A DNA stretch of 64,000 bases from an uncultured Candidatus Saccharibacteria bacterium (GTDB taxonomy: Bacteria; Patescibacteriota; Minisyncoccia; Phycocordibacterales; UBA1006). A program made the position numbers and the translations under genes. The notes below the pieces were generated by a model. The model ran no database searches. It was not told the DNA's origin and was given only the letters and a program-made list of their open reading frames with translations. The DNA is taken from the NCBI GenBank assembly GCA_964507625.1, contig CAZDPR010000001.1:5012-69011 (forward strand), written 5' to 3'. How positions within the stretch are numbered: position 1 is the stretch's first letter; every line of letters begins with the position of its first letter. Below are positions 27,953 to 64,000 of the stretch, one piece after another.

Positions 27953-27956
27953 ACAG

Positions 27957-28370
27957 TTAATTATATCTTGTTTTATCTAAAATATCCAAATTACGCGCAA
28001 TAGATTCAATTTTTCTATGATCAACAACATTTGGTTGTGGTTCTGGTGATGAAATAATAGCAGGTTTTTGATTAACAGGTTTTTGTTTTGATGTAACCTT
28101 CTCCCACACATAGAGTTTATCTTTAGATAAATATTGAATAAATGATTGAACAATACTTAAAAAAGGTTGATTATTAAACTTATAAAAAGAAAGCGCTAAT
28201 GAAATTGATGCAATAATAACCATTAAAGGAATTGCAAAAATGATAGGAAGAATTTTATAAAGAACAAAAACAATTCCTCCGCCACCTGCAAGATAAATAA
28301 ACTGTTTAAAAGTAAGTGGTCCAAAAAGTTTATCTTCGATGTCAATAAATTGTGGTACTTCAAATCTCAT
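27957..28370 (-). CDS. small 2-TM membrane protein, VirB3/PrgI-like by position
   Basis: 137 aa; two hydrophobic helices; sits just upstream of the ATPase, as VirB3 homologs do. Confidence 0.4.
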   Translation of the reverse strand: MRFEVPQFIDIEDKLFGPLTFKQFIYLAGGGGIVFVLYKILPIIFAIPLMVIIASISLALSFYKFNNQPFLSIVQSFIQYLSKDKLYVWEKVTSKQKPVNQKPAIISSPEPQPNVVDHRKIESIARNLDILDKTRYN

Positions 28371-28426
28371 ATAGTTTTAGTATACCAGATAAAAAGAAAA
28401 GACAGTATGGAATACATACTGTCAGT

Positions 28427-29086
28427 CTATAAATTTTCGATCGTGGTGTCGACGATCTGTTTTTTTTTGATTAACATATCGCGTAATTTTTCAGTACTGA
28501 GAAGTGGTGTGGTTTCTGGGATTGGAGAAGTTGTTTTTTGTGGATTAAAAATAATAGGATTCCCAACAGGTTTTGTTTCCGGTATTATTGGCGAACTTCC
28601 AACGGTTCGAACCAACTTTGCTTCAGGTGTAATAATAGGTGTTTCTTCTGTAGTTAATTCAATACCATTTGATAATAACGAGTCTTTCGTATTTATTTCT
28701 GATACAGGATTAAAATTAATATTTGGTTCTGATTTTTTTTCACCACCATGTACAATATAATCATGAATAGGGGTAAACACTTTCTTGACTACTTCTCCTA
28801 AAAGAGATTCCACTTGAGCTGGAGAAAGTGCAAGTCGAACTGCAAGTTCGTTTGGATAATCATTAGGTGAAACCATGCCTACAAGTACTAAAATAGTTTC
28901 AATTTGAAAATCTTCAATTTCACTATCAATAATTCCATTACTTTTCCCAATTTCAGTTATTTGTTTAAGCCAATCAAAAGAAAGGAGTGCCCTTCGGTTA
29001 ATTTCAGGAAGTTTCTGCAATTCTTCCTCAAATACTTGTTTCATTTTTTCATTTTTAAATGTGAGCATAGATGCTATAAGTATCAC
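28427..29086 (-). CDS. hypothetical protein with a P/T-rich C-terminal tail
   Basis: 219 aa; C-terminal TTEETPIITPEAK...PIPETTPLLS low-complexity linker. Confidence 0.4.
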   Translation of the reverse strand: MILIASMLTFKNEKMKQVFEEELQKLPEINRRALLSFDWLKQITEIGKSNGIIDSEIEDFQIETILVLVGMVSPNDYPNELAVRLALSPAQVESLLGEVVKKVFTPIHDYIVHGGEKKSEPNINFNPVSEINTKDSLLSNGIELTTEETPIITPEAKLVRTVGSSPIIPETKPVGNPIIFNPQKTTSPIPETTPLLSTEKLRDMLIKKKQIVDTTIENL

Positions 29087-29123
29087 ATGTATAAAATAAA
29101 AATCAAGGATTTCTCCTTGATTT

Positions 29124-31856: not shown

Positions 31857-31903
31857 AACTGTTGTTAGTATAACATAGGTAGTTATTTAATTACAATAAA
31901 AAT

Positions 31904-31930
31904 AAAAAGCCATAACGGCTTTTTATTGTG
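31904..31930 (-). terminator. internal terminator/attenuator within the T4SS-like operon
   Basis: AAAAAGCC-ataa-CGGCTTTTTATT. Confidence 0.55.
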
Positions 31931-34793
31931 AAAATGAATCTTTAAAAATATAACTCACAATTTCACTTTCTTTTGTGGTATACCACTGAGATCCATTAAT
32001 AAGTTTACATCGTAATTCTCCATTTTTCTTTGTACCCCTATCATCATTAACTTCTAATAACCATACAGAAAATGGACAAAGATAATGACGATTTAAACTT
32101 CTTTCTCCTGGGTCTTGATTAAAAATTTCCCAAATATTTCGCGCAGGTTGTACCTGGTATTTATCGCTCGAATCACGACTTTCCCGAATACCTGTATCCT
32201 GATAACAAGGTCCAGTGGTTGGGTTTGCGCATTGACCACCCTCTATCATATCTTCTGGAAAACGGGTTGGGTCAGTAGTAAGAATCGATGAACTACCATC
32301 CTGAATACCCAAACGAACTACATCAGTTCTAAACTCATTTTGTCGTCGTATTAGTATTTGTCGTAATTGTTCATGAGCATTTTTATTTGTTGGAGCACTT
32401 GGGTTTCCAATAAGCCCAACATTTTGTTCAGTAATAGTTCTAAGTAATCTACAATCATGGAGATTGTCTTGAATGTCTAAGGTTATGGATCGTAATTCAT
32501 TAATATCTAATTCTGACTGGTCAACATCTCTTTTTATTGAAACTCTTTCAGCAACTGCATTATATTCTGTTCTGATTTGATTTTTTTTCTCTAAAAATAA
32601 TTCAGATCGGGATATTGGTGCGGTTCCCAATATCTGCTCTCGTCGTTGTTGCAACTCTACAACAGAAGGTTGTCCAAAATTCCAATAATCAGATGCAGTA
32701 ATACTGGTCCCTTGAATAGTATCTATTTGAACTAATTTAAAATATGCTTCTGGTTTTTCCCAAATATTCCAAAAATGATTCATTACATAGTCAAACTCAC
32801 CTTGTTCACTAGTTGGAACATCTGTAGCAGTTGAATTTTTTACCCAATTCAGCATTTCTGTTTTATCCGCCCTTGAAAGCGCTTTCCATTCCGAAGGGGA
32901 AAAAACAATTTTTGTTCGTATTGATTCAGGAATAATTCCACTAGGAATCAATGCAAAGCTTTGACGAATATCATTTTTAAGCTTTCTTAAAACATTTAAT
33001 GCAGTTTGTTTTTTAATTAGATCGGATCGTTTTTTTCCGTATACTTTTTGCACATCAATTAATTTATTGGTTTGAGATTGAAAAGTAAATGCTCCTGGAA
33101 TATTTCGCTCTGGGTCTGACATCCATACTTCTACTTCTGCCTTAGCGAGAGGTACTGCGGTTTCAATAATATCTTTTGCTTGCTCTCTATTTTCTTGTTT
33201 ATTATCAGTTCCTCCCCCTGATGCAAGTTTTGCTTCTAAATTTCTTGTTTGTACTTGAACATATTTATCAATTTTATCTACAAAATCAAAGTCAGGACCA
33301 GGAACACATGCGCTGAGTTGCGAAACGAGCTTTGGAAATGATTTGTTTTCATTTACTCCATTTTCTTCTACAGACACCAGTGGTTTACCTCCGATAATAG
33401 ATATGTATTCTTGAATTAGTCGTAATTCTTGCTCTGTATATTCAAGCGCAAGACTAAAATCAGATCGTAAATCCACAACGTTTATAGGGGCTTGTGTCCA
33501 ATTTATAATTCCACCTGAAACTGATTGGAGTTGTTCTGGTCCTCCAATGGCGGGGGGTGATTGTCGATAATCAGCACGAAGTGATGCAAGTCCCGACTGA
33601 AGAAAGCTGTTTGCCATACTTACAAAAATACCCGCAACCACCTCTCCAATTTCATCAACGTTTTTAATTTTATCCATCGCGAGATCAGTAGCTCCTTGCA
33701 GACCACTCGATACTAACCCTAAAGGATTTTGGATTGTTTCTACTAAACATCGTCCAAAATCTTCAACTAAAACTTGTGTATTTGTTGCGAGCGTGTTTCT
33801 TAATCCCTGTACCTGACCCTGAATTTCTTTTATTTCCTCTAGTTCTTTATTATACCGGGCAATATCATTTCCCCAGTTTTTATATTCATCTTGTAACATT
33901 GACATTTCTATTTGTAGTTGTTGTGCTCTCGTTTCATTTCCCGCATTTTTTGCTTCTTGTATTTTAGGTGGAAATGCAGTAATTTTGGGAGATAAAAGCA
34001 TTTGTTCCTGTATTGCTTCTTGTATAAGTGTATTTAATCGATTGATTTCTTGTTGCGCCATTTTTAATGCGGTAGTATCTTCACCTGTTTCAATCTGTTG
34101 TTGATTTACACCCTGAAACTCATCTCTATTTTTCTTTATTGTTTTAATTTGTTGTGCATAGTCAGAAAAATTAAGTGAACACGCCTGTTGCTGAGGGAGT
34201 ATTCCTGGGCTCGTTAATTTAATCATTTCGTTTTCCCGAGCACGCTCAATAGTTACCCCTAATTGTCGTTGTGCGATCAAGCTTGAACCAATTCCAGTAT
34301 TTCCAGGAATAGACATGGCGAGCAATCCATCGTAACCACCAACACTTGCGTCTTCGTAAAATTCCTGCCAGCGACTACCAACAACTCTATCAAGATTAAA
34401 ACCACCAATAGTGTCAGGTATACCAGGTCCTCCAGCTGTTGAATAAGCAAAAATCATACTACGTGCAATATTTTGAGCGAAAGGGTTTTGTGAAACCTCT
34501 AAGTCAGTAACAAATTTTTGAATTTTTGTTCGTTCGAGATCTGCAAAATAACTATTAAAATCATTTACAAAACTTGGCTGACTATCGTCACCACTGGCCC
34601 CACCATTTGCCTTATTAAAAATTTTATTAGCAAGTTTCGTTCCCGCAGTAGACGCAAGTACATATGCAAGCGTGTCGAGTCCATATTCTTTTATTTGGTT
34701 TGCAACATCAACAAATTGAGCTTGGGATATTTGAGGAACCATGATTACAAAAAGTAATAAAAGGGTAATATTTTTTTTTGTTTTCTTAAACAT
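31923..34793 (-). CDS. large secreted hypothetical protein (956 aa, signal peptide)
   Basis: MFKKTKKNITLLLLFVIMVPQISQAQ signal; no recognisable catalytic motif; candidate surface, pilus or adhesin component. Confidence 0.5.
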   Translation of the reverse strand: MFKKTKKNITLLLLFVIMVPQISQAQFVDVANQIKEYGLDTLAYVLASTAGTKLANKIFNKANGGASGDDSQPSFVNDFNSYFADLERTKIQKFVTDLEVSQNPFAQNIARSMIFAYSTAGGPGIPDTIGGFNLDRVVGSRWQEFYEDASVGGYDGLLAMSIPGNTGIGSSLIAQRQLGVTIERARENEMIKLTSPGILPQQQACSLNFSDYAQQIKTIKKNRDEFQGVNQQQIETGEDTTALKMAQQEINRLNTLIQEAIQEQMLLSPKITAFPPKIQEAKNAGNETRAQQLQIEMSMLQDEYKNWGNDIARYNKELEEIKEIQGQVQGLRNTLATNTQVLVEDFGRCLVETIQNPLGLVSSGLQGATDLAMDKIKNVDEIGEVVAGIFVSMANSFLQSGLASLRADYRQSPPAIGGPEQLQSVSGGIINWTQAPINVVDLRSDFSLALEYTEQELRLIQEYISIIGGKPLVSVEENGVNENKSFPKLVSQLSACVPGPDFDFVDKIDKYVQVQTRNLEAKLASGGGTDNKQENREQAKDIIETAVPLAKAEVEVWMSDPERNIPGAFTFQSQTNKLIDVQKVYGKKRSDLIKKQTALNVLRKLKNDIRQSFALIPSGIIPESIRTKIVFSPSEWKALSRADKTEMLNWVKNSTATDVPTSEQGEFDYVMNHFWNIWEKPEAYFKLVQIDTIQGTSITASDYWNFGQPSVVELQQRREQILGTAPISRSELFLEKKNQIRTEYNAVAERVSIKRDVDQSELDINELRSITLDIQDNLHDCRLLRTITEQNVGLIGNPSAPTNKNAHEQLRQILIRRQNEFRTDVVRLGIQDGSSSILTTDPTRFPEDMIEGGQCANPTTGPCYQDTGIRESRDSSDKYQVQPARNIWEIFNQDPGERSLNRHYLCPFSVWLLEVNDDRGTKKNGELRCKLINGSQWYTTKESEIVSYIFKDSFSQ

Positions 34794-34798
34794 ATTGT

Positions 34799-35752
34799 TT
34801 ATAAGTTAAATAAAATAGTAAATTCAGAAATTTTTTTTTCAACAACATTTATATTTTTTTGAAGCACTAGAAATAAAATCATATTCATCATATCTTGGTC
34901 TTCTGCCGGAAGGTTATTTTTTTGTAAAAAAGTGTCATGAATTTTTGCTAGCGCATTCATAAGTGCTAAGTGTTGATCGATATAATCAAAAGGTACCGGG
35001 ATAGTATATATTTCTCGAGTAAGATTTTGGAATAATATTCTATCTGCTGAAGTGTCAGTATTATTGAAAAAGTTTGGATACCGATTATAAATATCTTGAA
35101 TATTTATTCTTTCGATTATTTTTTTTATTTTTTCCTCATAATCAGATAGTTCTTTGTTTATATTTACCCCTTCTTCATCAAAAATAACTACAACATCTTG
35201 TTCTGCATAAGTTGTCATTTGTCTATCAATAGTGTCTGCAAGATCGAGAATTTCTTTTGCAGTTGCTGCTTGAAGATTTTCTTGGTAATTCCTTCCTATA
35301 GGATTTGTTCGTGCTCTCTCATAAATTGCAAGCGCTAATTGATCACTCGTAGTTAAAATACCTATAGTGTCATTAATAATTGACCGCATTTCAATAGGAA
35401 CTTCTTCGATTGTGGTAAATACCTCAGAATCAGTTCCAATTAATGCTTCTTGCCAATCAGGAATTCCATCCCCATCTGTATCTTTATTAATAACAAAGGA
35501 AACATTTCTCTTGTTGGTATCTATAACTGGTGCAGGAATATCATTCGGTGGAAAAACCTTGGTTTCTATTTTTTTAAATAGTCCAATGATTTGAGACCGC
35601 AACATAATAATGATTACTACGACGAGTATTCCAAATACAGTGAATACTAATTTTTTACTCGGTAAATAACTACTCAATGATCCTGAATATTGTTTTGGTG
35701 GTTCCATGTAATTCTGATCATTTTTTTGTTCATAAAAAAATTTATTTCGCAT
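34799..35752 (-). CDS. membrane-anchored hypothetical protein with a DxDxDG calcium-binding-like motif
   Basis: TM LVFTVFGILVVVIIIML; DTDGDGIPDWQEA (thrombospondin-type-3-like); start set to MRNKFF. Confidence 0.4.
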   Translation of the reverse strand: MRNKFFYEQKNDQNYMEPPKQYSGSLSSYLPSKKLVFTVFGILVVVIIIMLRSQIIGLFKKIETKVFPPNDIPAPVIDTNKRNVSFVINKDTDGDGIPDWQEALIGTDSEVFTTIEEVPIEMRSIINDTIGILTTSDQLALAIYERARTNPIGRNYQENLQAATAKEILDLADTIDRQMTTYAEQDVVVIFDEEGVNINKELSDYEEKIKKIIERINIQDIYNRYPNFFNNTDTSADRILFQNLTREIYTIPVPFDYIDQHLALMNALAKIHDTFLQKNNLPAEDQDMMNMILFLVLQKNINVVEKKISEFTILFNL

Positions 35753-35818
35753 ATCATATAATAGTGTACCAAAAAAGAAAAAAAATAGATATAAAAAACA
35801 CACCACACGGTATGTTTT

Positions 35819-42126: not shown

Positions 42127-43083
42127 ATGAACGTAATAGAAGCGCTCCAACAATTTTTAGAATATGTAGAAATTGAACGAGGTCGGTCACTCAATACCGT
42201 CCGTAATTATGATCACTATCTGCACACCTTTTTTAATCACGGAAAAATTGTGAAACTGTCTGATATTACCGAATCAAAAATTCGTGAGTTTCGACTCCAC
42301 TTGAATCGGAGTCAGGGAATAAAAATAAAAGGTCAGTCACAAGGAACTATGAAAAAAGTTACTCAGAATTATTACATGATTGCGATTCGTTCCTTTCTCA
42401 AGTTTCTCAAGAAACGAAACCTTAACTCCCTTTCTCCTGATGCTATTGAACTTGCAAAAGTTGGAGCTCGCGACATTGATCATTTATCAAGTGATGAACT
42501 CAAACGATTGTTACACGCGCCAAAAATTGCATACGAACAACTGATTAACGGAAAAAAAGAAAGCGATAAACAAGGGTATGAAAGAGAACGATTACTACGA
42601 GACGCTGCAATTTTGGAATTGTTTTTTTCTACTGGATTGCGTTTATCAGAACTGTGCTCACTCAATCGTGATTTAGATTTACAAAAAGATGAATTCAGTA
42701 TCAGAGGTAAGGGCGATAAAGTTCGTGTGGTATTTTTATCAGATACTGCAAAACAATCAATTCGTGAATATTTAAAAATACGTAAAGATTTTGCAGAACC
42801 TTTGTTTACTAATATGTCGTTTCATAAGACTAATGATGCACGACTAACCCCACGATCAATTCAGCGTATTGTGAAACAGTATGCAACGATTGCAGGTATT
42901 TCAAAAAAAGTTACCCCACACATGTTGCGACACAGTTTTGCAACTGATCTACTATCTAATGGTGCTGATATTCGATCGGTACAAATGATGTTAGGTCATG
43001 CAAATATTGCAACGACACAAGTCTATACGCATGTGACGGATAAACAATTACGAGACATTCATAAAAAGTTTCATGGGAAATAA
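42127..43083 (+). CDS. tyrosine site-specific recombinase, XerC/XerD family
   Basis: 318 aa; N-terminal SAM-like domain, catalytic R...HxxR...Y: LRHSFATDLLSNGADIRSVQMMLGHANIATTQVYTHV. Confidence 0.8.
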   Translation: MNVIEALQQFLEYVEIERGRSLNTVRNYDHYLHTFFNHGKIVKLSDITESKIREFRLHLNRSQGIKIKGQSQGTMKKVTQNYYMIAIRSFLKFLKKRNLNSLSPDAIELAKVGARDIDHLSSDELKRLLHAPKIAYEQLINGKKESDKQGYERERLLRDAAILELFFSTGLRLSELCSLNRDLDLQKDEFSIRGKGDKVRVVFLSDTAKQSIREYLKIRKDFAEPLFTNMSFHKTNDARLTPRSIQRIVKQYATIAGISKKVTPHMLRHSFATDLLSNGADIRSVQMMLGHANIATTQVYTHVTDKQLRDIHKKFHGK

Positions 43084-43813
43084 AAAGTTTCATAATTATG
43101 AAACTTTTTTTCGTGACAAAAAATTTTACCAACGTATAATAGAAATAATTATGGACACACAAAAGCAATACAACTATTTTGATCTTTCCTATCGCACCGG
43201 ATCTGATGTATGGACGCATACACCATATCATAAAACTGCATTGCGCATACTTCCCCCGCTCCCTGCAGGAACCATTGTGCTCGACATTGGATCAGGTCGT
43301 GGTATATGGGCTGTGAAACTCATCGAACAAGGATACCGTGTAATCGGCGTTGATTATGTAAAATCAATCGTAGAAAAATTAAATCAAGACATCAAAGAAT
43401 ATGCGAACGCAGAAAAAATTCGTTTCATTCAGGCTGAAGCAACCGATCTCCCTTTTACAGACAATAGTATTGAGCTTGCAACCGAAATTGGTCTTATGCA
43501 ACATTTTGATCACGACCATCAATTAAAGTATGTAACAGAATTACAGAGAATTATAAAATCAGGTGGATATGTATTATCGGTTAATCTTTCAGATCAAACA
43601 CCGCGATATTTAGATTTCACTCCAAAAACAAAAAATAATTCCCCATATGAAAAATTTGGGGTGAGTTATACCTTTTTTTCAAAAGAAGAAGTTGCAGAAA
43701 TGTTTGGCCAATACGGCTTTACAACAATACATCAAGAAATTGAATTTTTTGATTCTCGTACTGATCCAGGTGAATCGCTCGGGTTACTGTTTACGCTCGC
43801 ACAAAAAAAATAG
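43073..43813 (+). CDS. class I SAM-dependent methyltransferase
   Basis: VLDIGSGRGIWA (motif I), VIGVD, ...IKSGGYVL; true start possibly Met at about 43151. Confidence 0.6.
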   Translation: MGNKKFHNYETFFRDKKFYQRIIEIIMDTQKQYNYFDLSYRTGSDVWTHTPYHKTALRILPPLPAGTIVLDIGSGRGIWAVKLIEQGYRVIGVDYVKSIVEKLNQDIKEYANAEKIRFIQAEATDLPFTDNSIELATEIGLMQHFDHDHQLKYVTELQRIIKSGGYVLSVNLSDQTPRYLDFTPKTKNNSPYEKFGVSYTFFSKEEVAEMFGQYGFTTIHQEIEFFDSRTDPGESLGLLFTLAQKK

Positions 43814-47986: not shown

Positions 47987-48802
47987 ATGAACCTCACAAA
48001 ACCAGAAACTACCGAGGAACGAATCATTTCCCTCCTCCTTAAAAATTCGCTTTCTGGGGTTGAGTTATTAGAAATACTTGATGTTTCTGGTAAAAAAATT
48101 ACAAAACAAGCGTTATATAGTGTTTTAAGAAAATTAATCCAAGATGAAATAGTCGTAAAACATGCAAAAATGTTTTCAATTTCTCGATTATGGCTCAAAA
48201 ATATGGCGAATATGTTTACCTCGGCTCAGGATCGTTACGGGATTGAACTTGAAAAAAACGACTTTCTTTCATTGCATGAAGGTGACAAGATTTCATATAC
48301 CTTTAAAAATCCATACGAAGCAGACCAGTTTTGGGGTCATGCATTTGATATTCTAATTGATAAAACACCATTAGAAATTCCTATTGTATTATACAATCCC
48401 CATCAGTGGTTTTTACTAGTTCGTAAGGACAGTGAATATCAGTTATTAGAACGAATTAGTAAAGAGGGAAAAAAGTTACATAACCATGTTGGGAGTTCGA
48501 ATGCGTTAGATAGATATGTAGAAAAGTATTTTAATTTACCGGGATTGCAATATGTAATGAATGAACAAGGGTATTTTGAAGCAAGGAATTATTATATCAA
48601 TATATTTAATAACTATATTATTGAAGTATATATTGATGAAAAAGTTGCCGAAGAAATTGATCGTTTTTATGAGCAATATACAGATTTTGATAAAATCGCT
48701 GAAAAGAAATTACAATCTATTGTATCCCAGGGTAAAACAAAACTTATTATTTCTCTGAATACCAAAAAAGCAGATAGATTAAGAGGGTTGATTGAAGCTT
48801 AA
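47987..48802 (+). CDS. wHTH putative regulator, paralog 3 (same family as 14001 and 16163)
   Basis: KQALYSVLRKLIQDEIVVK...ISRLW...NPHQWFLL...KTKLIISLNTKKADRLRGL; collinear motifs with paralogs 1 and 2; divergent from the SDR-like gene. Confidence 0.45.
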   Translation: MNLTKPETTEERIISLLLKNSLSGVELLEILDVSGKKITKQALYSVLRKLIQDEIVVKHAKMFSISRLWLKNMANMFTSAQDRYGIELEKNDFLSLHEGDKISYTFKNPYEADQFWGHAFDILIDKTPLEIPIVLYNPHQWFLLVRKDSEYQLLERISKEGKKLHNHVGSSNALDRYVEKYFNLPGLQYVMNEQGYFEARNYYINIFNNYIIEVYIDEKVAEEIDRFYEQYTDFDKIAEKKLQSIVSQGKTKLIISLNTKKADRLRGLIEA

Positions 48803-48836
48803 AAAACACCTGTTTCATATGAAACAGGTGTTTTTG
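48801..48836. terminator. terminator whose stem is a parS-like palindrome
   Basis: AAAAAACACCTGTTTCATATGAAACAGGTGTTTTTG. Confidence 0.65.
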
Positions 48837-48873
48837 TTATGGATTAGATAAAAAATGGTTACATGTGAAACGT

Positions 48874-50364
48874 TTATTTATTAGCTTTCTTGGCAACATT
48901 ATGTTTCATGTGTAACTTGGTAATTTCTTGATTATCAATTTGTTCTTTGGTTTCCTTCCCTTTTTCTCCTAATGTACGAAGAATTGTATCATCTAGCTCA
49001 TTAAGATCTTTTACTCGTTCTGTTAATGTTTCCAGGGTGTTTTTTGTGGGGTCTTCCAAAACCTCTTCGAGTAATGCATGTAATATCCACCCCATGCGTG
49101 GCCCTGGTTTCATGTGTAACGTATGGAGTAAATAGTTCCCATCAATAGCGAGCTGTTTTACACTGATCGGATCACGCAAACATTCCTCAATCATGGCAAA
49201 ATATTTACGCAGACGATAGGGTGCCTCTGTTTTAGACATTCCAACACGGTCACATTCACGGACTTTCATGAGATCCCAAATATATTCCTTACCGACATTT
49301 TGAATCATTCTCCGCACAGCAGACAATGTGATTTGTTCTGTGTCGCTAAAAAACATATGCCAACGGACAAACATAACAACGATTTCAATGTCCTTTTTAG
49401 GAAATTTTAATCTTTCAAGGACTTTCTGGGTTATTCGTGCACCAACTACCTCATGTCCGTAAAAAGTATATGCTTTTTTATTTCCAGGCCTACGTGTTTT
49501 TGGTTTTCCGATATCGTGGAACAACGCTGCCAGTTTCACATGAAACGGATAGTCTTTATCTGCAGCATGCTGTAATGCATATACCAAATGGTCAAAAACA
49601 TCGTATTTATGGACTCCTCCTTGTTCACAATTAATTCCAGGAACGAATTCAGGGAGAATTATCTCCAGTACCCCTAATTGTTTCATGAGAAACATTCCAA
49701 TACCAGGATTTTTAGAATCTATTATTTTAATAAACTCATCCCTAATCCGCTCTATTGATATATTTTTCAATAAATCTTTGGTTTCTGATATTGCGGATAG
49801 GGTTTCATATGAAACAGGTAGGTTTAACTGAGCTGAAAAGCGGATAGCACGCATAATACGGAGTGCATCCTCTGAAAAACGTTCCACAGGATTACCAACC
49901 GATTCAATAATTCCCTTTTCTAATGATTGTTTCCCATGAAACGGATCAATAAACTCATATGTTTCAGGATTTAACGCAATTGCATTCATGGTGAAATCTC
50001 GACGAGAAAGGTCATCAATGATGTTTTTACTAAAAGACACAGAATCAGGATGTCTGTTATCAGAGTAATTACCTTCTGTCCGATATGGGGTCACCTGGAT
50101 TTCTCGCACAGTACTGGTGAGATCTTCATCTTCAAAAACAACAGAAACTGTTCCAAATTGGTTTTCGTACACCACCTTGAGATCGTCTAATTCAAATATG
50201 GGGATCATTTCCTCTGGGATTGCATTTGTTGTAATATCCCAATCTTTGGGTTCACGTGAAACGATAATGTCGCGTACACAACCTCCTACTAGGTACGCCT
50301 CAAAACCCGCTTTGGCAAGCAAGTTCGTTACACGGGAAACATTGTGAGGAATACGCGCATTCAT
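48874..50364 (-). CDS. cca: CCA-adding enzyme / tRNA nucleotidyltransferase with an HD domain
   Basis: LVGGCVRDIIVSREPKDWDITT (PolB-type NTase), HD motif LAALFHDIGKP; 496 aa. Confidence 0.8.
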   Translation of the reverse strand: MNARIPHNVSRVTNLLAKAGFEAYLVGGCVRDIIVSREPKDWDITTNAIPEEMIPIFELDDLKVVYENQFGTVSVVFEDEDLTSTVREIQVTPYRTEGNYSDNRHPDSVSFSKNIIDDLSRRDFTMNAIALNPETYEFIDPFHGKQSLEKGIIESVGNPVERFSEDALRIMRAIRFSAQLNLPVSYETLSAISETKDLLKNISIERIRDEFIKIIDSKNPGIGMFLMKQLGVLEIILPEFVPGINCEQGGVHKYDVFDHLVYALQHAADKDYPFHVKLAALFHDIGKPKTRRPGNKKAYTFYGHEVVGARITQKVLERLKFPKKDIEIVVMFVRWHMFFSDTEQITLSAVRRMIQNVGKEYIWDLMKVRECDRVGMSKTEAPYRLRKYFAMIEECLRDPISVKQLAIDGNYLLHTLHMKPGPRMGWILHALLEEVLEDPTKNTLETLTERVKDLNELDDTILRTLGEKGKETKEQIDNQEITKLHMKHNVAKKANK

Positions 50365-50372
50365 ATAGTTTA

Positions 50373-50660
50373 TTATTGATCACTTGATACATCTTTTGCA
50401 TCAGATTTTATATCACTTGTTTCATGTGGAACATTAAAATCTTCATGATGATTATTTGTTTCACGTGAAACTTGCTCTTGTTTTTTTGGAATAATAGCCC
50501 AACAAATAATATAGAACAGTATTCCAGGTAGATTAAAGATTAATGTAATTAATACATAAGCCAGTCGTACCAATGTCGGATCTTTTTCAATATGTTCAGC
50601 AAAACCACCTAAAACACCACCAAGTATTTTTTCTTGATTTGATCGATATAGTTTTTTCAT
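50373..50660 (-). CDS. PspC-domain membrane protein
   Basis: LYRSNQEKILGGVLGGFAEHIEKDPTLVRLAYVLITLIF...YIICWAIIP fits the PspC-domain consensus; start moved to the internal Met to clear tRNA-Arg. Confidence 0.55.
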   Translation of the reverse strand: MKKLYRSNQEKILGGVLGGFAEHIEKDPTLVRLAYVLITLIFNLPGILFYIICWAIIPKKQEQVSRETNNHHEDFNVPHETSDIKSDAKDVSSDQ

Positions 50661-50727
50661 AAGTATTATGGCAAGTTCTTTAGTTTCTTGCTCATTATTA
50701 GTATACAACATTCTTAAAGAATTTATG

Positions 50728-50799
50728 TGCACCTACCAGGACTCGAACCTAGAATAACAGTTCCGAAGACTGCTGTGATATCCATTTCACCATAGGTGC
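50728..50799 (-). tRNA. tRNA-Arg (anticodon UCG)
   Basis: reverse complement folds as GCACCTA-TG-GTGA-AATGGATA-TCAC-A-GCAGT-CTTCGGA-ACTGT-TATT-CTAGG-TTCGAGT-CCTGG-TAGGTGC-A. Confidence 0.75.
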
Positions 50800-50872
50800 T
50801 TTTTAATTATTCGAACTTAGTAAAAATAGCATATATTTTACATTAAATCAAGTTATATTCATTATTAGCTAG

Positions 50873-50943
50873 TGCAAGCAGAGGGAATCGAACCCTCGAC
50901 TTCTCCTTGGCAAGGAGATATTTTACCACTAAACCATGCCTGC
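50873..50943 (-). tRNA. tRNA-Gly (anticodon GCC)
   Basis: reverse complement has anticodon arm TCTCC-TTGCCAA-GGAGA, T-arm GAGGG-TTCGATT-CCCTC, acceptor GCAGGCA/TGCTTGC. Confidence 0.8.
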
Positions 50944-51393
50944 GATAAATCGAGTATATCATAAGGACTTTATTTTTGAACAGATAAGTTAATAAAGGAC
51001 TTATACACAAATTCCCCAAGTTATCCACATATTGTGTAAGACAAGAATAAAAAAATCAGGAACAATTTTGTCAAAAAATTATTGACATATAATAATTTTA
51101 TTATTTTTAAATCAAAAATAGCCTTTATTTTTATTAAAAATGTGGATAAACCTGTGGTATATGTTTATAACCGACAAGTCAATATTGTCTATTGTTAAAA
51201 AAATTGTGTCTCACAATAGTCTTATATAAAATTTTTTTATCAAAATATTCATATAAAATAAGCTTATTTTGAATAAAAACTTTTTATCAGACAAAAAAAT
51301 AATATTGTGGATATTAATATGTTTCACGTGAAACATATTAATTTTATTAAACTAATAAAAATTTGAACTAAAATATATTATAATAAACCTGCT
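50944..51393. promoter_or_regulatory. AT-rich intergenic region with a DnaA-box cluster (second origin-like element)
   Basis: perfect TTATCCACA at 51021, perfect TGTGGATAA at 51140, TGTGGTATA at 51152, TGTGGATAT at 51306, perfect parS at 51319; about 20% GC. Confidence 0.5.
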
Positions 51394-51843
51394 ATGAAAC
51401 GCTTTACTACAGGAAAACAAAAAATTGGTGAATTAGGTGAAACGTTTGCGCAGAATTTTTTAGTTGAACAAGGGTATGTAACTATTCAGAGAAACTTTAA
51501 TTGTCGTTTTGGTGAAATTGACTTGATTATGAAAAAGGGAAGTCGGTTACATTTTATTGAAGTAAAGACAGTAGTACAAAAAAGTGCTACTGACCTGGTA
51601 GTAAACTCGCAAATGTCTTTGAGTAACCGAGAGTTATTTATTAAAGAATATCGATCACTTACTAATCCTTTTGAAAATATTTCGTTTCGCAAGAAAAAGA
51701 AGCTCATAAAAACAGTAAGGTATTATTATTTAGTGAATAAAAAAATACCAGAAAATTTTTCCATTGATGGCATTGGAATTATTTTAAATAAAAATAATGA
51801 AGTCACTGATTGTAAAGTTATCCACAATATCATTATTCAATAG
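51394..51843 (+). CDS. YraN-family (UPF0102) endonuclease-like protein
   Basis: ...FGEIDLIMKKGSRLHFIEVKTV... PD-(D/E)xK-type signature of the YraN family. Confidence 0.65.
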   Translation: MKRFTTGKQKIGELGETFAQNFLVEQGYVTIQRNFNCRFGEIDLIMKKGSRLHFIEVKTVVQKSATDLVVNSQMSLSNRELFIKEYRSLTNPFENISFRKKKKLIKTVRYYYLVNKKIPENFSIDGIGIILNKNNEVTDCKVIHNIIIQ

Positions 51844-57320: not shown

Positions 57321-59525
57321 ATGAATCAAATTTTTTTTAGAAACCAGCAAAGTATTTTAAAAGAAAAACCAGGTGATAAAAAAATTGAAAGTTTTGAAGA
57401 CCTTTCAAAGAATTTTGATTTCTATAACCTAGATCAAAAGGGATATAGTAATTTTGTAAAAGATTTCTCAAATGAATTTCTTGAAAGAGAATTTAAATTG
57501 GGGAGAATAATAAAAGACCCTACAGGAAGGCTTGTTGTAAATACTCAGACAGAGGATTTTATTAAAAGTGCTATTGATAGAATTAGTAAATTTAAAACAA
57601 GAAGGCCTGACGATGTTTCATTTTTACTTCTTTTATATAGTGATATTTTTATAAAAACTGAAAATGGACTAGAAAAATTCCTAGATATTCCAAAAACCAA
57701 AGATCATTTATTGACTGGATCAGAAGGTTTTCATGATTTTCTCTCCTTAAAAGGTGTTTCTCCAAAAGTGGAAATAGTTTTACCAGATGGAACAAAAACA
57801 AATCCTTTAGAAATCTCTTTTTTGAGAGCATGTAGGAAATATAACATTTCTAGACAAAAGGGTGATAAGCTTTTTTATACTAATCCAGAAACAGGAAAAA
57901 GAGAAAGATTTTTCATAAAAAGAATTGAAGATGGTTCTATAAAAATGAAATATTTTAAAGAAATGTTTAATATAGAAAAAATAAAAGAAATCCTACATAA
58001 TTGCTTCGAGGAAGAGATAATTAAAACTACAGATTTTCGACTAGACAATAGAGATAATTTTGGCTTAGATGAAAAAAGTTTTGAAAATAAAAAAGTTTTT
58101 TTTGGTCCCAAGTATGCAAGTTTTACCACTATTCCTGGCTATTCAATACGTTATTATTTAGGTAGAAATAAAATACCAGGTATTAATATTGACTGGAAGC
58201 CAACAATAAAATTATCTAGACTAGACAAAAACACCGCTGCGTTTATAGACTCAAGTTATGGTGTTAATAAAATTATTGCAACACTTGACTTATTCCAAGA
58301 TAAATATGCTATAGAGAAAATGTTTCTGACCGCAAAAGAGTTAGGAGTTAAAGATCCTGATGCAAATTTAGTACTCAATAATGATTATACAGAAAAGAAC
58401 ATACAATCTTTTGATATTAAAAATATTTTACCTCAATTTGTAAAGGAAAACCCACTAGATCACCTAGATTTCTTAAGTCAGGTTACTGATGTAAAAAATG
58501 TTATAAATATGACTAGAAGTGTATTAGAAAAATTAAACATTTCTGTTCTTGAAATACCATTCAAACAACAGGTATTACTGTTCGGCTCTCTTAGTCAAAT
58601 AGGAAAGGAGGATGAGGTTATAAATTTAGTTAAAAAATTTAAAATTAATGGATTAAAAACTTTCCTTTCTCTTGAACATGGTGGACAAGAAATGGGTGAT
58701 AAAATTCTTGAGCTAGGTAAGATACTCGAACAACACGATGCAGAGCGTGTATTTACTGGATACGCACAAATTATTGATCAAGCAGATTCGTTAAAAAATC
58801 GTCTAGAAAATTCATTACAAGATCGGGATATAGTCTCACTTGAACTAAAGAAGAAAATCCCCCACCAGATATATGATGCGTTGTTACTTCGTGCAAAAGA
58901 TATTTTAATAGGCGCTCATATGGTTGCAACAGGAACGATTGAAGGAAAACTCGATATTGATGAAGTGTGTAATGCACTTGCAGGTATTACTAAAATGCTT
59001 CATATTATTAATCATTTACATACCCAGGATTACTATCAGTTTACTAAAACACTTGAGACACCCCAAAATCATAAATATCATATTATTGATTCTGTAACAC
59101 AACATGAATACATCTTAAAAATTTTCTTGCGACCATATGCAGAAAAAAACGCTCAAGCCCGTGCCAATTTTGAATTATCTTTTGACACAAAAAATCCAGA
59201 TCCAATATTACAAAAAACATTTTATAATGAAATTATTTCACATACCCAGAATAAAAAGATATCAGGTTCAGTATTACGTATTGGTATTGATCGAGAGGAT
59301 TATGATGGAGTTGGTCGTGTATCACTCGATATAGGAAGGTCAGAACGCAGTGATACAGAACTTACTCGTACTGGAGATATACTTGGAAACTTACTTTCAT
59401 ATGCATCTATCGATGGCCACCATACCACAGAACCATTCAGTTCAGAATTTGGTGATCCAGAAACATTCGCACAACTTGTAAACCTACTAGGAACGTCATT
59501 AATAAAACAAAAACAGCCTAATTAG
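57321..59525 (+). CDS. hypothetical 734-aa protein
   Basis: long ORF with native codon usage; no recognisable motif. Confidence 0.45.
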   Translation: MNQIFFRNQQSILKEKPGDKKIESFEDLSKNFDFYNLDQKGYSNFVKDFSNEFLEREFKLGRIIKDPTGRLVVNTQTEDFIKSAIDRISKFKTRRPDDVSFLLLLYSDIFIKTENGLEKFLDIPKTKDHLLTGSEGFHDFLSLKGVSPKVEIVLPDGTKTNPLEISFLRACRKYNISRQKGDKLFYTNPETGKRERFFIKRIEDGSIKMKYFKEMFNIEKIKEILHNCFEEEIIKTTDFRLDNRDNFGLDEKSFENKKVFFGPKYASFTTIPGYSIRYYLGRNKIPGINIDWKPTIKLSRLDKNTAAFIDSSYGVNKIIATLDLFQDKYAIEKMFLTAKELGVKDPDANLVLNNDYTEKNIQSFDIKNILPQFVKENPLDHLDFLSQVTDVKNVINMTRSVLEKLNISVLEIPFKQQVLLFGSLSQIGKEDEVINLVKKFKINGLKTFLSLEHGGQEMGDKILELGKILEQHDAERVFTGYAQIIDQADSLKNRLENSLQDRDIVSLELKKKIPHQIYDALLLRAKDILIGAHMVATGTIEGKLDIDEVCNALAGITKMLHIINHLHTQDYYQFTKTLETPQNHKYHIIDSVTQHEYILKIFLRPYAEKNAQARANFELSFDTKNPDPILQKTFYNEIISHTQNKKISGSVLRIGIDREDYDGVGRVSLDIGRSERSDTELTRTGDILGNLLSYASIDGHHTTEPFSSEFGDPETFAQLVNLLGTSLIKQKQPN

Positions 59526-59537
59526 GCTGTTTTTGTT
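59506..59537. terminator. bidirectional terminator between convergent genes
   Basis: AAAACAAAAACAGCCTAATTAGGCTGTTTTTGTT. Confidence 0.65.
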
Positions 59538-60366
59538 CGTGGAGTGGATGTTTTTCTTTTGCAGTATTCCAAATAAAATTGAATATAATGAGGAATGTTG
59601 TATACGTAGCATAATCGTCAATAATAGTAGTAATCATTGTTTCTCCAAAAGAAGTAATACCAACTTTTTGTTTACCATAGAGAATAATTTGGGCTGGAAT
59701 ATTAAAAACCTCAATAGGAACAACTTGACGTTCTACAAAGTGTTTTTCATCAAATTCTTTTACCCAATGAAAAGTATCTTCTACTATTGGAGTGATTGCT
59801 TTAGTATGGATATTGTTTGTCACCTGTTTTTGAATTTGTTTTAATATTTTATCATCTACTTCGGGGTGGTTTCGATCAGCTGGTGATTGAATAAGAAAAA
59901 TATCTTTTTTTTCACTGATAATATCAGACCATAATCGTTCAAGCCCCTTGATACCTTCAAAAAATTGAACCCCTGGTTTTTCTTGAAATAAATTAAACTG
60001 AGATAAAAACGTGCCAAGATTCGCAGAAACAGTTTCTTTTGCAAGTTGGATATTTTTTTCTTGACTTTCCAACATGTCGATCAGGCGATCGGGATGAGAA
60101 GGGGAATAGGTGGTTACTGTCCCAGTACCACCTTTTTTCTGTACAAGTCCTAAATGCTCCAATTGTTCAAGTGTTTTATAAACTAACCCCCTTTTAACAC
60201 CTGTCCATTTTGAAAGTTCTCCAGCTTTTTGAGCACCTTTTTCTAATAATGACTGATAAATAAGCGCTTGATCTGCTGAGAGGCCTGATTGAATAAGAAT
60301 GTTTTCTTCTGTCATACCTCGATAGTATATACTATTTTGTTTTGTCATGCAAATATGACAAAACAT
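59518..60366 (-). CDS. wHTH (TrmB-like) putative regulator, divergent paralog 4
   Basis: N-terminal ...ALIYQSLLEKGAQKAGELSKWTGVKRGLVYKTLEQLEHLGLVQKK wHTH; divergently transcribed from the ncRNA-candidate promoter. Confidence 0.45.
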   Translation of the reverse strand: MFCHICMTKQNSIYYRGMTEENILIQSGLSADQALIYQSLLEKGAQKAGELSKWTGVKRGLVYKTLEQLEHLGLVQKKGGTGTVTTYSPSHPDRLIDMLESQEKNIQLAKETVSANLGTFLSQFNLFQEKPGVQFFEGIKGLERLWSDIISEKKDIFLIQSPADRNHPEVDDKILKQIQKQVTNNIHTKAITPIVEDTFHWVKEFDEKHFVERQVVPIEVFNIPAQIILYGKQKVGITSFGETMITTIIDDYATYTTFLIIFNFIWNTAKEKHPLHEQKQPN

Positions 60367-60430
60367 TTAATTAAAAAAGCTATATTTTATAATGTTTATT
60401 TTAAAAAATATAATTTTTATTCACAAGTCA

Positions 60431-60459
60431 TTGACAAAACAATATGATTATGCTATACT
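60431..60459 (+). promoter_or_regulatory. consensus sigma70-type promoter (TTGACA-17 nt-TATACT) firing rightward
   Basis: TTGACA at 60431-60436, 17-nt spacer, TATACT at 60454-60459; predicted TSS about 60466. Confidence 0.6.
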
Positions 60460-60465
60460 GTGGGT

Positions 60466-61264
60466 AAGAAAATGAGATATGAAATTAATCACATCTCAGA
60501 TTCAGTTCTTTCCATACAGATTATCTATTCAATTAAGAACGTACTACCGAATGGTCAGGGGAGCCAAAAATCGCCATAACGAAGAAGTAGAGACGAGGAG
60601 AGCTTAACCGAGTAGATAATGGTTCATAGAATGATCGGAGTAGGAAAACAATGACTTGAACCTCATCTGTTCCCTATATTCCACTAAGTGCTTAGCGGCC
60701 GACGGATTGCATCATTCACACAGTCTTATAACGAGATCTGCTGGGATAATACGACTAACCCCCGTATTACCTAGAAATCTCTTTAGAAGAAAATTATTTA
60801 AGAGGAGAGATCTTACATAATTCTAAAGAGGAGAGAAATCTTCTTTGTAAATTGAATAGACACTGACCACAAAACCTGATGAGGTGTGTAACGCACGGTA
60901 GGGGGTTGTGGGTGCAGATAACATATAAGTTTTAAAGACAATCTACTCACAAAGTAATAAACAGTGGAGGATGATTGTCTACCTTATTGAGCCGGCAGGG
61001 TTACCCGCGCCAGATCCGCGTCTCCATTGGAGACCTGGGATCATTTCCGGGTAGTCGGCTCATTGGGTTTGCACCCTCCTGAACTAGGGACCACCAGTTT
61101 AAGGATGGGGAGGGGCAGTGGCTGAGTTCACTATAACCCGTCCCGCTCCAAAGATGACTCAGTCACGACTCTGTTAGATCGGAGAACTGAGTTGAGATGT
61201 TAGTGAGGGTGCAAAAAAAATATAAGGGGAGAAAAACCGAGCAATCGGCCTCCCCTCTTTTATC
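60466..61264 (+). ncRNA. candidate large (about 800-nt) structured non-coding RNA of unknown family
   Basis: bounded by a consensus promoter and a GGGGAG...CTCCCC+TCTTTTAT terminator; no ORF of 60 aa or more in any frame across about 900 nt; GC well above the genome background; numerous local hairpins and a duplicated AAGAGGAGAGA element. Confidence 0.35.
61226..61264 (+). terminator. Rho-independent terminator ending the ncRNA candidate
   Basis: GGGGAG-aaaaaCCGAgcaaTCGGc-CTCCCC then TCTTTTAT. Confidence 0.55.
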
Positions 61265-61730
61265 CAGCAGAGGAGAGAATCGTCTGTTGGTAGAAGTTGT
61301 GAAATTGTTTCCAGAACTTTCTGTTCAATAGTATTGAATGGTTGGTTATGGAAATAATGTCAAATATGGTCAGCCTTCCGGGGCTGACCGTCGTGGGTAA
61401 GATAGATTTGCCCACGAAAACTGCGGGCAAAAAAGCCCGCAAAAAATATTTCAAACCTTTCACCGGTGGGTCGACCATCGGGGAAAGGTTGAAAGCCGCA
61501 GGTGTTACTTTAAAGTAACACCTGCGGTGGTCACCGAATGACCTCAAAAATGTCGGCGTGATAGAGTGATCCTTACGAGAAATGGATTGCAGGTTCATTA
61601 GACCAAAGCGTGTTTGCAAAGTAATGCCTTGGCATGAAATGCAGAGATCTTTGGCAAGCAAACAGAGCCTGTAAGCTCTGGCGGTACCTAAAATAAAACC
61701 GCGCTTTTCTTTTTTTAAATCATATAATAT

Positions 61731-62165
61731 ATGATTATAAAAAAAGAAGTCAATTCCCTTCAAATCCTCGAAATTTTCGACGGATTTGGAGGGGTGTTCC
61801 TTGGAGCACTGAGTCTGTTCTTGAAACAGCAGTGGGATATCTCCCTCTGCATTGAAAGAGCAGATTCACTTGCCGAAGGGCTCCACGAGGAGATTGATGG
61901 TTTTGAAACAGTAAACCTAAATTATTCCTGGGAGTCACAAGGTGACGATGAACTTGTAATCCACTACTTTTCACGTAGTGGAAATGAATACAAGTTCATC
62001 CTAAACAAGGGATTTGCTTTGTGGGATCGTAAAAAATCCCACAGAGTAGAATTTTTCAATGGAACCTCGTTAGAGAGTTTCATTGAAAAGGTGTGTGCCT
62101 CAGAAGGTACACACCCGAATCCTTTGTTTAGAAGGAACACGACCACCACAGACACCGAAATATAG
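61731..62165 (+). CDS. doubtful 144-aa ORF in the GC-elevated, hairpin-rich region
   Basis: starts right after the AT-rich palindrome ATCATATAaTATATGAT; region contains strong hairpins (for example GTGTGTGCC...GGTACACAC) and overlapping antisense ORFs, so coding status is uncertain. Confidence 0.2.
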   Translation: MIIKKEVNSLQILEIFDGFGGVFLGALSLFLKQQWDISLCIERADSLAEGLHEEIDGFETVNLNYSWESQGDDELVIHYFSRSGNEYKFILNKGFALWDRKKSHRVEFFNGTSLESFIEKVCASEGTHPNPLFRRNTTTTDTEI

Positions 62166-62759
62166 TAGGTGTCAGTGGTCCTCGGAGTTAGGAAGTTTTT
62201 TCCTTCGAGGTAAAACCGGACAATGTGTCTGGCGTAGTGAACCAATAAGCTACGAACAGGTGAATGATTGTGAAAGGTTTCCAAGGGAATCAATCAAAAC
62301 TTAGCCACCAAAAAGAACGGCGTTTGATAGTGAGTACGCTTCGTGCCAGCAATGGAATAACACGAGAAAACTGTCTGATAGTGTCACCTACTACGTGGTG
62401 AGCCTAGCGGAAGCAGATCCGACATGACGAGAAGTCACAGTTATCCCAAGCAGGCGTGGTTGCCTGCTTGGGCAAGAGGGTTATGGCAAAGTAATTTGCC
62501 ACTCTTATTCCATTATCAAGTTTGTAATTTGATAGTGGATTAGAGGTAAATTGGTAAGAGTATCAAGAATGCATGGTTCACCATGTTTTTTTATTACTCT
62601 TACCAAGGAACGCACGTTGTGCAAGTACCTTCCGAAAAACTGATTCTCGTGAAAGCCATGCCAGGCAGGAAGACGAGTGAGGTAAACAGTTCACGCCGAG
62701 TATGTTCTCGGAAAAATTCTGGATGAAATGAAATCCCTGGCCAGACAGGGTAAGAAAAT

Positions 62760-63314
62760 ATGGCTAAAACTTTGAGTTTGGCAGAATTTTCTCAAATCGC
62801 AAAAGCAGCGCAAGCGCGCGTTGCTGAGCGTGGTCCAGCCTACTATGGCTGGGTGAATGCGCCTGAAAGAACAGGTCGCATTTTCACCCAAACCCAAGGC
62901 TGGGGTCAATCAGCCAAAAAAGTAAAAGCCTCCCCAGTGGAGGCTTTAGAAATTTATAAGAAAAAATTGGATGGAGCGTACGGCGAACGGTTTGTAATGA
63001 GCCTGGGACTTATCGCCTCACTCATTGCGAACGGATATTCTGTTCGTTTTGTGCAATTCCAAAAGGAGGCAGGCGTGCCGTTTAACGCCTCCGGCTGGAC
63101 AGTCATCGTCGTGGAGACGATGCCAATTTTTCACATCGCTCCGGAGGATCTCCGGTTGAGCGATGTTCAGGATCTCGTAGAGATTCTGACTGATAACCAA
63201 GCTCCAGATGTGGCTTGGAAAAAAACCAATAAAGTCGGCGAATTCGCCGCCTTACTGGCTGGCTCAATCGAGCCCGGGCTGGACTTGGTAAAAATTGCTC
63301 AGGAGAATTCTTAA
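62760..63314 (+). CDS. hypothetical 184-aa protein with foreign (about 50% GC) composition
   Basis: clean ORF with protein-like composition; no recognised motif; lies in the GC-elevated island. Confidence 0.4.
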   Translation: MAKTLSLAEFSQIAKAAQARVAERGPAYYGWVNAPERTGRIFTQTQGWGQSAKKVKASPVEALEIYKKKLDGAYGERFVMSLGLIASLIANGYSVRFVQFQKEAGVPFNASGWTVIVVETMPIFHIAPEDLRLSDVQDLVEILTDNQAPDVAWKKTNKVGEFAALLAGSIEPGLDLVKIAQENS

Positions 63315-63533
63315 TCTCTTGAGCTATGTCCTACGCGAGACCGTAGGAAGAGCACATGCCTGACGTGCGAATTCTGGTTAATCAGGTAATGAGAGTTTGG
63401 TTGTAACTCTTGAAAAAACAATCGACAGGGTTAAAGGGTTAACATGGAGAGCAATCTCCAACTGTCTCCGTCTCATAGGCGGACTGATGAGTCTTGTTCT
63501 GAATAATACTGAAGAACGAAAGACGAAACAGGA

Positions 63534-63797
63534 ATGGTTCCAAACATGTTTGAGTGGGTATTTTTTATCTATTCAAATATGTTTGGAACCTGTAAGGTTC
63601 CCGGTTGCTGTAAACCAGCAATCGGGAGCTACTGGGGTGGTTCTCCTGGCGTATGTCAGGAGCACTTTGATGCCCCAAAAAAGGCCGAACGTGAAAAAAA
63701 AGAAAGAGTCTATAACGAGGCTCTTTCTGCAATCATGCGTAAGTATGATTGCTCACGTGAGGCTGCTGAAATAATACTTCGTAAAGGGGTATTATAA
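63534..63797 (+). CDS. small Cys-rich (putative zinc-binding) protein
   Basis: ...GTCKVPGCCKPAIGSYWGGSPGVCQEHF... C-x4-CC...C-x2-H cluster; GC-rich island. Confidence 0.3.
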   Translation: MVPNMFEWVFFIYSNMFGTCKVPGCCKPAIGSYWGGSPGVCQEHFDAPKKAEREKKERVYNEALSAIMRKYDCSREAAEIILRKGVL

Positions 63798-64000
63798 TTT
63801 CAGCTCCCCCTGTCTCGATGGCACAACAGGGGATTCCAAGAAGGCAAAGCCTTCATCGAGAATAAACTTCTTGGACATAGAAACTGATTCAACTATGTAA
63901 AAAAGATCAGAAAGCAGATTCGTGAACACTGCTTGGAATAAAGTTCACCCCAACGACTGCGGGTAAAAGTCACAAAGGTTCCACCCATCACGCGTGGTTG

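Follow-up and report, generated by a model that had tools for sequence, protein, structure and literature searches.

A dense parS-like array around the cca locus of a Patescibacteria genome, a probable chromosomal centromere

ParB dimers bound to cytidine triphosphate (CTP) load at parS sites and slide outward, forming a partition complex. The parS sites of chromosomal ParABS systems were reportedly surveyed by Livny et al. in 2007. In Bacillus subtilis, one parS lies inside spo0J, and Corynebacterium glutamicum is said to have 10 parS in 35 kb. Here, we analyse a 64-kb stretch of contig CAZDPR010000001.1 from an uncultured Candidatus Saccharibacteria bacterium (the window; all positions refer to it). 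It carries a dense array of parS-like palindromes in and around the genes cca and pspC. This array is probably the chromosomal centromere, or ParB nucleation zone, of a small AT-rich genome of the Patescibacteria (Candidate Phyla Radiation, CPR).

Most species have one to four parS, scattered over distances that range from kilobases to hundreds of kilobases (PMC3899335). A few species were reported with at least 20. In Myxococcus xanthus, 22-24 parS lie in ~3 kb, 4 kb from parA and ~35 kb from oriC, and are bound by ParB (PMC3899335). The sites parS1-4 of Pseudomonas aeruginosa are clustered near oriC. A single one suffices, and the extra sites add robustness (PMC7022226). The ParB of this species also binds hundreds of half-parS heptamers, GTTCCAC or GTTTCAC, across the genome (PMC7022226).

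Compared with these systems, the array resembles the chromosomal parS of B. subtilis, Caulobacter and Thermus. It has the same 16-bp palindrome, TGTTTCACGTGAAACA, keeps its G1 and A6 bases, and has multiple copies in the wider dnaA region, possibly near the origin, some of them inside genes. Unlike typical chromosomal parS, its 13 sites are crowded into 2.5 kb, two genes contain ten of them, and no cognate ParB was found in the window or within 10 kb of the array in relatives. The array also resembles the M. xanthus cluster. Both are chromosomal, with about one site per 140-200 bp and degenerate variants of one consensus, and like that cluster the array may be proximal to the origin. The M. 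xanthus consensus differs (TGTTCCACGTGGAACG), and its cluster is next to parAB. Conversely, the window array flanks a spacer with DnaA boxes, has no parAB nearby, and its sites are constrained at codon level in conserved housekeeping genes. As in C. glutamicum and P. aeruginosa, several parS, here near a candidate oriC, would form one ParB nucleoprotein zone. The density in these two species is about tenfold lower, and no array embedded in coding sequence was reported for them.

The first-pass annotation had contrasted the array with typical chromosomes carrying a few dispersed sites. This overstates its oddity, given the 22 parS in 3 kb of M. xanthus (PMC3899335). The density is unusual, not unprecedented, and parS inside genes were already known.

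The array and its motif

A scan with GTTNCAYRTGNAAC, allowing at most one mismatch, found exactly 13 sites in the window, all within 48812-51334. This criterion tolerates the half-site position that differs between species. Exact copies of GTTTCAYRTGAAAC are five (48812, 49533, 49802, 50458 and 51321), with 0.00 in shuffled sequences. With at most two mismatches to GTTTCAYRTGAAAC, 15 matches were found in the 64 kb versus 1.5 expected, and 13 of them fall within 48812-51334. For the 16-mer TGTTTCACGTGAAACA with at most three mismatches, all 11 matches of the window lie in 48811-51335, and the remaining 61 kb has none. A dense array is therefore present at the place where it had been described, far beyond chance. 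The earlier count of at least eleven copies holds for near-matches and fails for exact copies of GTTTCAYRTGAAAC.

Of the 13 sites, cca contains eight and pspC two, so 10/13 copies are in coding sequence; the remaining three are non-coding. Their match to canonical parS is 16/16 in one site, 15/16 in another, 14/16 in three, and 12-13/16 in the others. The centres are CATATG, CACATG/CATGTG or CACGTG, and include the two variants (CATATG and CATGTG) named before. The perfect parS is real. Its position is 51320-51335, not 51319; the location of the array was right, and two of its coordinates were off by one. Likewise, the site at 50457 (TGTTTCACGTGAAACT) scores 15/16, as claimed. The site at 50248 (GGGTTCACGTGAAACG) scores 13/16, below the 14-15/16 assigned to it.

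The window sites include 16/16 and 15/16 matches to TGTTTCAC-GTGAAACA. This is the universal parS consensus, in which the G1 and A6 bases distinguish parS from the Noc site (PMC7383237). The inverted repeat of the array fits tGTTtCAC-GTGaAACa, with G1 and A6 in nearly all half-sites. The sole C6 of the array is in one half of site 8. One half-site position is variable, GTTTCAC or GTTACAC. The same position differs between species, for example GTTCCAC in Myxococcus (PMC3899335) and Pseudomonas (PMC7022226). In an unbiased half-site test, GTTTCA followed by YRTGAAAC occurred only near cca. Judged by its sequence, the motif of the array is canonical parS.

Noc-binding sites (NBS) are a related palindrome, TATTTCCCGGGAAATA, bound by a paralogous protein of the ParB family. 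They have A1 and C6 and are scattered away from the terminus, whereas the array sites have G1 and A6 and are clustered. On these bases, an NBS identity was ruled out.

The sites are irregularly spaced, 39-863 bp from one to the next (46, 45, 204, 426, 147, 122, 127, 320, 78, 92, 39 and 863). They are alike over a core of 14-18 nt only, and the flanks differ. Plasmid centromeres such as sopC of F also have many binding sites within a few kilobases. However, sopC-like centromeres consist of regular tandem units, non-coding and with a plasmid-specific sequence, while the window array has the chromosomal consensus. A tandem-repeat centromere of this type was rejected, as no constant period exists. 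The earlier comparison with plasmid centromeres does not hold for an irregular array without tandem units in a setting of chromosomal housekeeping genes.

A short over-represented motif could also be a DNA uptake sequence (DUS/USS), a repeat of the REP or MITE type, or a restriction-related motif, and CACGTG is a restriction-type palindrome. The window is AT-rich (~33% GC) and has 51 heptamer half-sites versus 28 expected. Of these, 19 belong to the array or its immediate surroundings (48812-51443). The other 32 are close to the ~27 expected there, which is the chance level. The uptake sequence proposed earlier as an alternative was rejected because, in the window, the half-sites are not enriched outside the array and full sites are absent from the remaining sequence. 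A REP/MITE repeat was rejected as well. The copies share the core alone, at irregular spacing and without common flanks, most of them are coding, and none is dispersed in the window. The motif is also syntenically conserved. We give almost no credence to this group of explanations.

Heptamer clusters similar to the half-parS of P. aeruginosa occur 6-9 kb from the array, and elsewhere the half-sites are at background level. In the window, eight half-sites (GTTTCAY) lie in 1.2 kb over xerC and methyltransferase genes (42250-43428). In two relatives, L056 and L057, 11-12 half-sites lie in a gene for a 567-aa protein (18000-20000). These secondary clusters could be decayed or low-affinity ParB sites.

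Conservation in relatives and selection on the DNA

We compared the window with 53 loci from species-representative genomes (numbered with an L), 49 of which are Patescibacteria relatives. The cca protein groups with Patescibacteria, more precisely with Paceibacteria/Nomurabacteria-like metagenome-assembled genomes. Up to 2.5 kb from the cca start the motif occurs at 1.86 per kb, versus 0.033 per kb over the 614 kb of flanking DNA (57-fold). Within the 64-kb window and these flanks of the relatives, the motif is restricted to one region. In nearly every relative, the strongest site has 0-1 mismatch to canonical parS.

The gene order is conserved in the relatives: yraN on one side of a spacer and, diverging from it, tRNA-Gly, tRNA-Arg, in some cases pspC, and cca. 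The spacer is itself a conserved module. It consists of the yraN start, a master parS, ~100 nt of AT-rich DNA, two DnaA boxes, a second parS-like site and the tRNA promoter. A distance of ~155 bp separates the two conserved DnaA boxes from the master parS. We found a master site in syntenic position in ~32 relatives with upstream flank.

The other sites change their place. L001 (84% identity) keeps the site pattern of the window. In L056 and L057 (74%), 14-16 strong sites flank the spacer, on either side of it. In L054 (73%), cca lacks strong sites; ten are distributed over the spacer, yraN and the neighbouring gene. L002 has four sites just downstream of cca. The yraN of the window keeps half-sites only (51394 and 51437), together with a perfect DnaA box at 51818. 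The conserved unit is a cluster of ~10-16 sites around the spacer, not tied to cca. This turnover with a preserved cluster size indicates selection on the density of the array, not on individual sites. That the array shifts between neighbouring genes and keeps its size and position argues for a function as a DNA locus, and against the regulation of a single gene or a by-product of a protein.

The same observations bear on a regulatory explanation, in which ParB at these sites would act mainly as roadblock or silencer of cca, pspC, yraN and the tRNA operon, and not in segregation. There are sites in or beside the promoter or terminator regions of yraN, tRNA-Gly and cca, and in P. aeruginosa ParB influences the expression of genes close to parS (PMC7022226). 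However, the array moves between unrelated genes and still remains a cluster of ~10-16 sites around the spacer. The genes adjacent to parS in B. subtilis do not change their expression when Spo0J is lost. A mainly regulatory role seems to us quite unlikely.

The locus L044 is labelled Alphaproteobacteria and has a Patescibacteria-like cca/tRNA synteny. In 2300-7500 it has three near-perfect parS at a spacing of exactly 100 bp (5105, 5204 and 5304). Three further parS sites are present. All are upstream of cca, at a distance of 2.5-7.7 kb, and the gene is free of sites.

We estimated the constraint on the coding copies by resampling of codons. The cca gene of the window has 7 sites (at most 3 mismatches) versus 1.0 expected from synonymous resampling, and 0/1000 resamples reached 7. 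Over 46 related cca genes, 254 in-gene sites were found versus 25.5 expected by codon permutation within genes, and no summed simulation exceeded 40. In 41 distant cca genes, the fraction of the major codon is 0.92 at four site blocks and 0.61 elsewhere (p=4e-10). These blocks encode VTRES, ISRER, VTREI and VTQET, and all are GTTACACGTGAAA-like. With both a syntenic master site and constraint at codon level, the array is conserved as a DNA element. It is under purifying selection at the DNA level.

The in-gene sites occupy two reading frames, V-S-x-E or [F/L]-H-x-K. The third frame would give TGA. V-S-R-E is encoded at the palindrome in both cca (IIVSREPK) and pspC (EQVSRETN), as the first-pass annotation had observed. 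The in-gene copies might be a by-product of conserved peptides (VSxE and [FL]HxK) and codon bias, or mRNA hairpins, with true parS only in the intergenic copies. Host peptides at the sites are indeed conserved across 120 homologues, the protein sequence alone predisposes to ~1 site per gene by resampling, and site 1 forms a strong hairpin. Against this stand the tenfold excess over codon permutation and the conserved synonymous positions. The motif is shared by cca, pspC, yraN, a gene for a 588-aa protein and non-coding DNA, on either coding strand. The CCA genes of the Firmicutes and Ignavibacteria outgroups (L050-L053) have zero sites. As for an RNA motif, the bare 14-nt palindrome gives a stem of 5 bp only, and an Rfam search matched nothing but the tRNAs. 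We consider a by-product origin of the in-gene copies very improbable.

Two of the non-coding sites are part of longer palindromes. Site 1 is at the tip of a hairpin (48802-48835) with a 15-bp stem (dG -20.5 kcal/mol, z -6), flanked by an A-run and a T-run, between cca and a convergent gene for a 271-aa winged helix-turn-helix (wHTH) protein. This agrees with the terminator-like stem noted before at 48811. A simple terminator scan did not call the hairpin; folding shows it to be strong. The master parS is the centre of a perfect palindrome of 30 bp (51313-51342). Both palindromes (30 bp and 34 bp) could form cruciforms or terminate transcription in both directions. In distant relatives, the orthologous master sites are without the extended palindrome.

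The putative binder and the spacer

If the array is a centromere, as we think likely, chromosomal ParB dimers would nucleate at its sites as a CTP-dependent DNA clamp, close, and slide onto the flanking DNA. The sliding would build one large partition complex. With many close sites, ParB would load at a higher rate, and losing any one of them would matter little. The role of the complex would be to mark the origin-proximal region and segregate it, probably with loading of SMC as in other bacteria. We infer ParB as the binder from the motif, and this ParB would have to tolerate centres with TA or CA in place of CG. The proposal of a nucleation zone, already made in the first-pass annotation, gains from motif identity, the single locus, selection at the DNA level and syntenic conservation. 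It loses the likeness to plasmids and part of the claimed oddity.

Some observations weigh against the centromere. Most sites are 1-3 bases off the consensus, including the change of the central CG to TA or CA. Pfam on ~50 open reading frames (ORFs) and tblastn revealed no parA, parB or smc in the 64-kb window, as had been stated before for parA and parB. None turned up within 10 kb of the array in the 53 loci of relatives either, where tblastn with Spo0J and Soj gave no match at E<1e-3; the queries were confirmed as ParB against PDB. A second, richer cluster of DnaA boxes flanks dnaA (18.4-20.1 kb), which makes the assignment of the origin uncertain. Finally, in distant relatives the GC skew of the yraN-side flank is near zero, not negative, and a clean origin-type reversal was not seen there.

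The weak tblastn matches in L040, L037 and L003 were TrmB-like wHTH proteins and were discarded as ParB. A metagenome scan with a profile of three ParB gave control loci for density. In its best 80 loci, all Firmicutes-like, we usually counted 0-3 parS-like sites per 2.5 kb and never more than 7. Compared with these parB loci, the array is unusually dense.

The palindromes might instead be operators of another DNA-binding protein, TrmB-like or a winged-helix protein without Pfam family. They would then be a lineage-specific centromere, a nucleoid-organising site or a regulator of yraN, the tRNAs, pspC and cca. In favour of this, the searches near the array detected no ParB in either the window or the 53 relatives, and TrmB-like wHTH genes recur 3-9 kb from the array (59518-60366 in the window; also L003, L037, L040, L054 and L056). 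These genes are multi-copy, however, and their linkage to the array is not universal. The gene for the 271-aa wHTH protein (47987-48802) abuts the array of the window. It was rejected as a dedicated binder, since it is missing at that position in L001, L056 and L057, where the array is kept. Moreover, at least ten sites in coding sequence are atypical for an operator. The 16-bp consensus is identical to the parS that ParB recognizes across phyla, and we know of no other protein family that binds it. A binder other than ParB is unlikely in our view.

The 271-aa protein is one of three paralogues of ~270 aa (14001-14825, 16163-16993 and 47987-48802). They have a winged-helix-like N-terminus, no Pfam family and 25-41% mutual identity. 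Two of the genes are located 0.3-3.3 kb from dnaN, and the third borders on the parS array. Relatives have homologues only sporadically (L035, L036 and L042).

With regard to the origin, the observations are mixed. The spacer has DnaA boxes at 51001 (1 mismatch), 51021 (perfect), 51141 (perfect, minus) and 51306 (1 mismatch, minus), a GC content of 20%, and a strand switch at the master site. The genes diverge at the spacer (51 kb), and the GC skew rises beyond it. In L056 and L057, the minimum of the cumulative G-C skew is at the orthologous spacer. The DnaA boxes and the strand switch adjoining the array were missed by the first-pass annotation; they may be the origin itself. On the other side is the richer box cluster at dnaA. 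The dnaA gene (18653-20005) is 29-31 kb from the array, in agreement with the earlier estimate of about 30 kb. With at most one mismatch, the interval from dnaA to dnaN has six boxes, and another three are upstream of dnaA (18456-18650 and 20044-20132). This cluster is either a classical bipartite oriC arrangement or an autoregulatory region, and it competes as origin. We keep the spacer as a candidate oriC because of this richer cluster and the near-zero skew in distant relatives.

The GC skew of the window is flat between 35 and 51 kb. The segment of ~42.1-51.85 kb (from xerC to cca, the tRNAs, the spacer and yraN) is inverted relative to L056/L057. There, S15 abuts yraN, and xerC abuts the gene for the 567-aa protein, DUF5663 and uvrD. 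The inversion probably explains the flat skew.

A tentative extension is that, in this CPR clade, origin and centromere are one fused module, coupling ParB loading to replication initiation in ultra-small cells. We regard it as possible and clearly less probable than the centromere itself. In the module, two or three DnaA boxes would form a compact oriC together with an AT-rich stretch, and the master parS would lie at a fixed distance of ~155 bp, all of this 30 kb from dnaA. Another 10-16 parS on one or both sides would have colonised the local coding sequence (cca, pspC and yraN). The sites would thereby have fixed the peptides VSRE, VTRE and [FL]HVK across a divergence to ~50% protein identity.

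For parS or ParB in CPR/Patescibacteria, Parcubacteria or Saccharibacteria, nothing relevant was found in the searchable literature. What is new here is the lineage, the constraint at codon level with embedding in two frames, the turnover of sites between neighbouring genes, and the fixed coupling to DnaA boxes. The locus gives a concrete, clonable candidate centromere, possibly origin, for a class of uncultivated ultra-small bacteria. It is also a natural case of two codes in one sequence, in which a protein-binding palindrome was long kept in essential genes. The palindrome is limited to two stop-free frames, and the choice of amino acids and codons is visibly shaped by it.

Coordinates and other parts of the window

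Table 1. Genes, spacer and parS-like sites of the array locus, in window positions.
Feature	Position	Strand	Sequence and match	Setting or remark
cca, CCA-adding tRNA nucleotidyltransferase, 496 aa	48874..50364	-		hosts 8 sites
PspC-domain membrane protein, 119 aa	50373..50732	-		hosts 2 sites
tRNA-Arg(tcg) 50727-50799 and tRNA-Gly(gcc) 50872-50943	50727..50943	-		syntenic anchors in all relatives
tRNA-Gly/yraN spacer	50944..51393	.		450 bp, 20% GC; candidate oriC or DnaA-bound module
yraN (UPF0102), 149 aa	51394..51843	+		hosts array in L054, L056, L057
parS-like site 1	48812..48825	.	GTTTCATATGAAAC; 16-mer TGTTTCATATGAAACA, 14/16	non-coding; tip of hairpin 48802-48835
parS-like site 2	48858..48871	.	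GTTACATGTGAAAC	directly 3' of cca stop codon
parS-like site 3	48903..48916	.	GTTTCATGTGTAAC	cca C-terminal tail, K-L-H-M-K-H
parS-like site 4	49107..49120	.	GTTTCATGTGTAAC	cca, L-H-M-K-P-G
parS-like site 5	49533..49546	.	GTTTCACATGAAAC	cca HD domain, F-H-V-K
parS-like site 6	49680..49693	.	GTTTCATGAGAAAC; 16-mer 14/16	cca, M-F-L-M-K-Q
parS-like site 7	49802..49815	.	GTTTCATATGAAAC	cca, V-S-Y-E-T
parS-like site 8	49929..49942	.	GTTTCCCATGAAAC	cca, F-H-G-K-Q
parS-like site 9	50249..50262	.	GGTTCACGTGAAAC	cca, V-S-R-E-P
parS-like site 10, weakest	50327..50340	.	GTTACACGGGAAAC	cca, V-S-R-V-T
parS-like site 11	50419..50432	.	GTTTCATGTGGAAC; 16-mer 14/16	pspC, V-P-H-E-T
parS site 12	50458..50471 (16-mer 50457-50472)	.	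TGTTTCACGTGAAACT, 15/16	pspC, V-S-R-E-T
master parS	51320..51335	.	TGTTTCACGTGAAACA, 16/16	non-coding, 59 bp upstream of yraN

Two other parts of the window were noted. The region 60400-64000 has a GC content of 0.41-0.45, versus ~0.33 elsewhere, and short ORFs without Pfam matches; no rRNA or other Rfam match was found in it. It may be foreign or degraded DNA. At 21677-35806, a cluster on the minus strand has a flavour of type IV secretion. It includes a VirB4/TraG-like P-loop ATPase (25476-27287), PrgI (27957-28370), an SLT transglycosylase, a peptidoglycan-binding protein and two unknown proteins of 910-956 aa. This cluster is syntenic in L056/L057.

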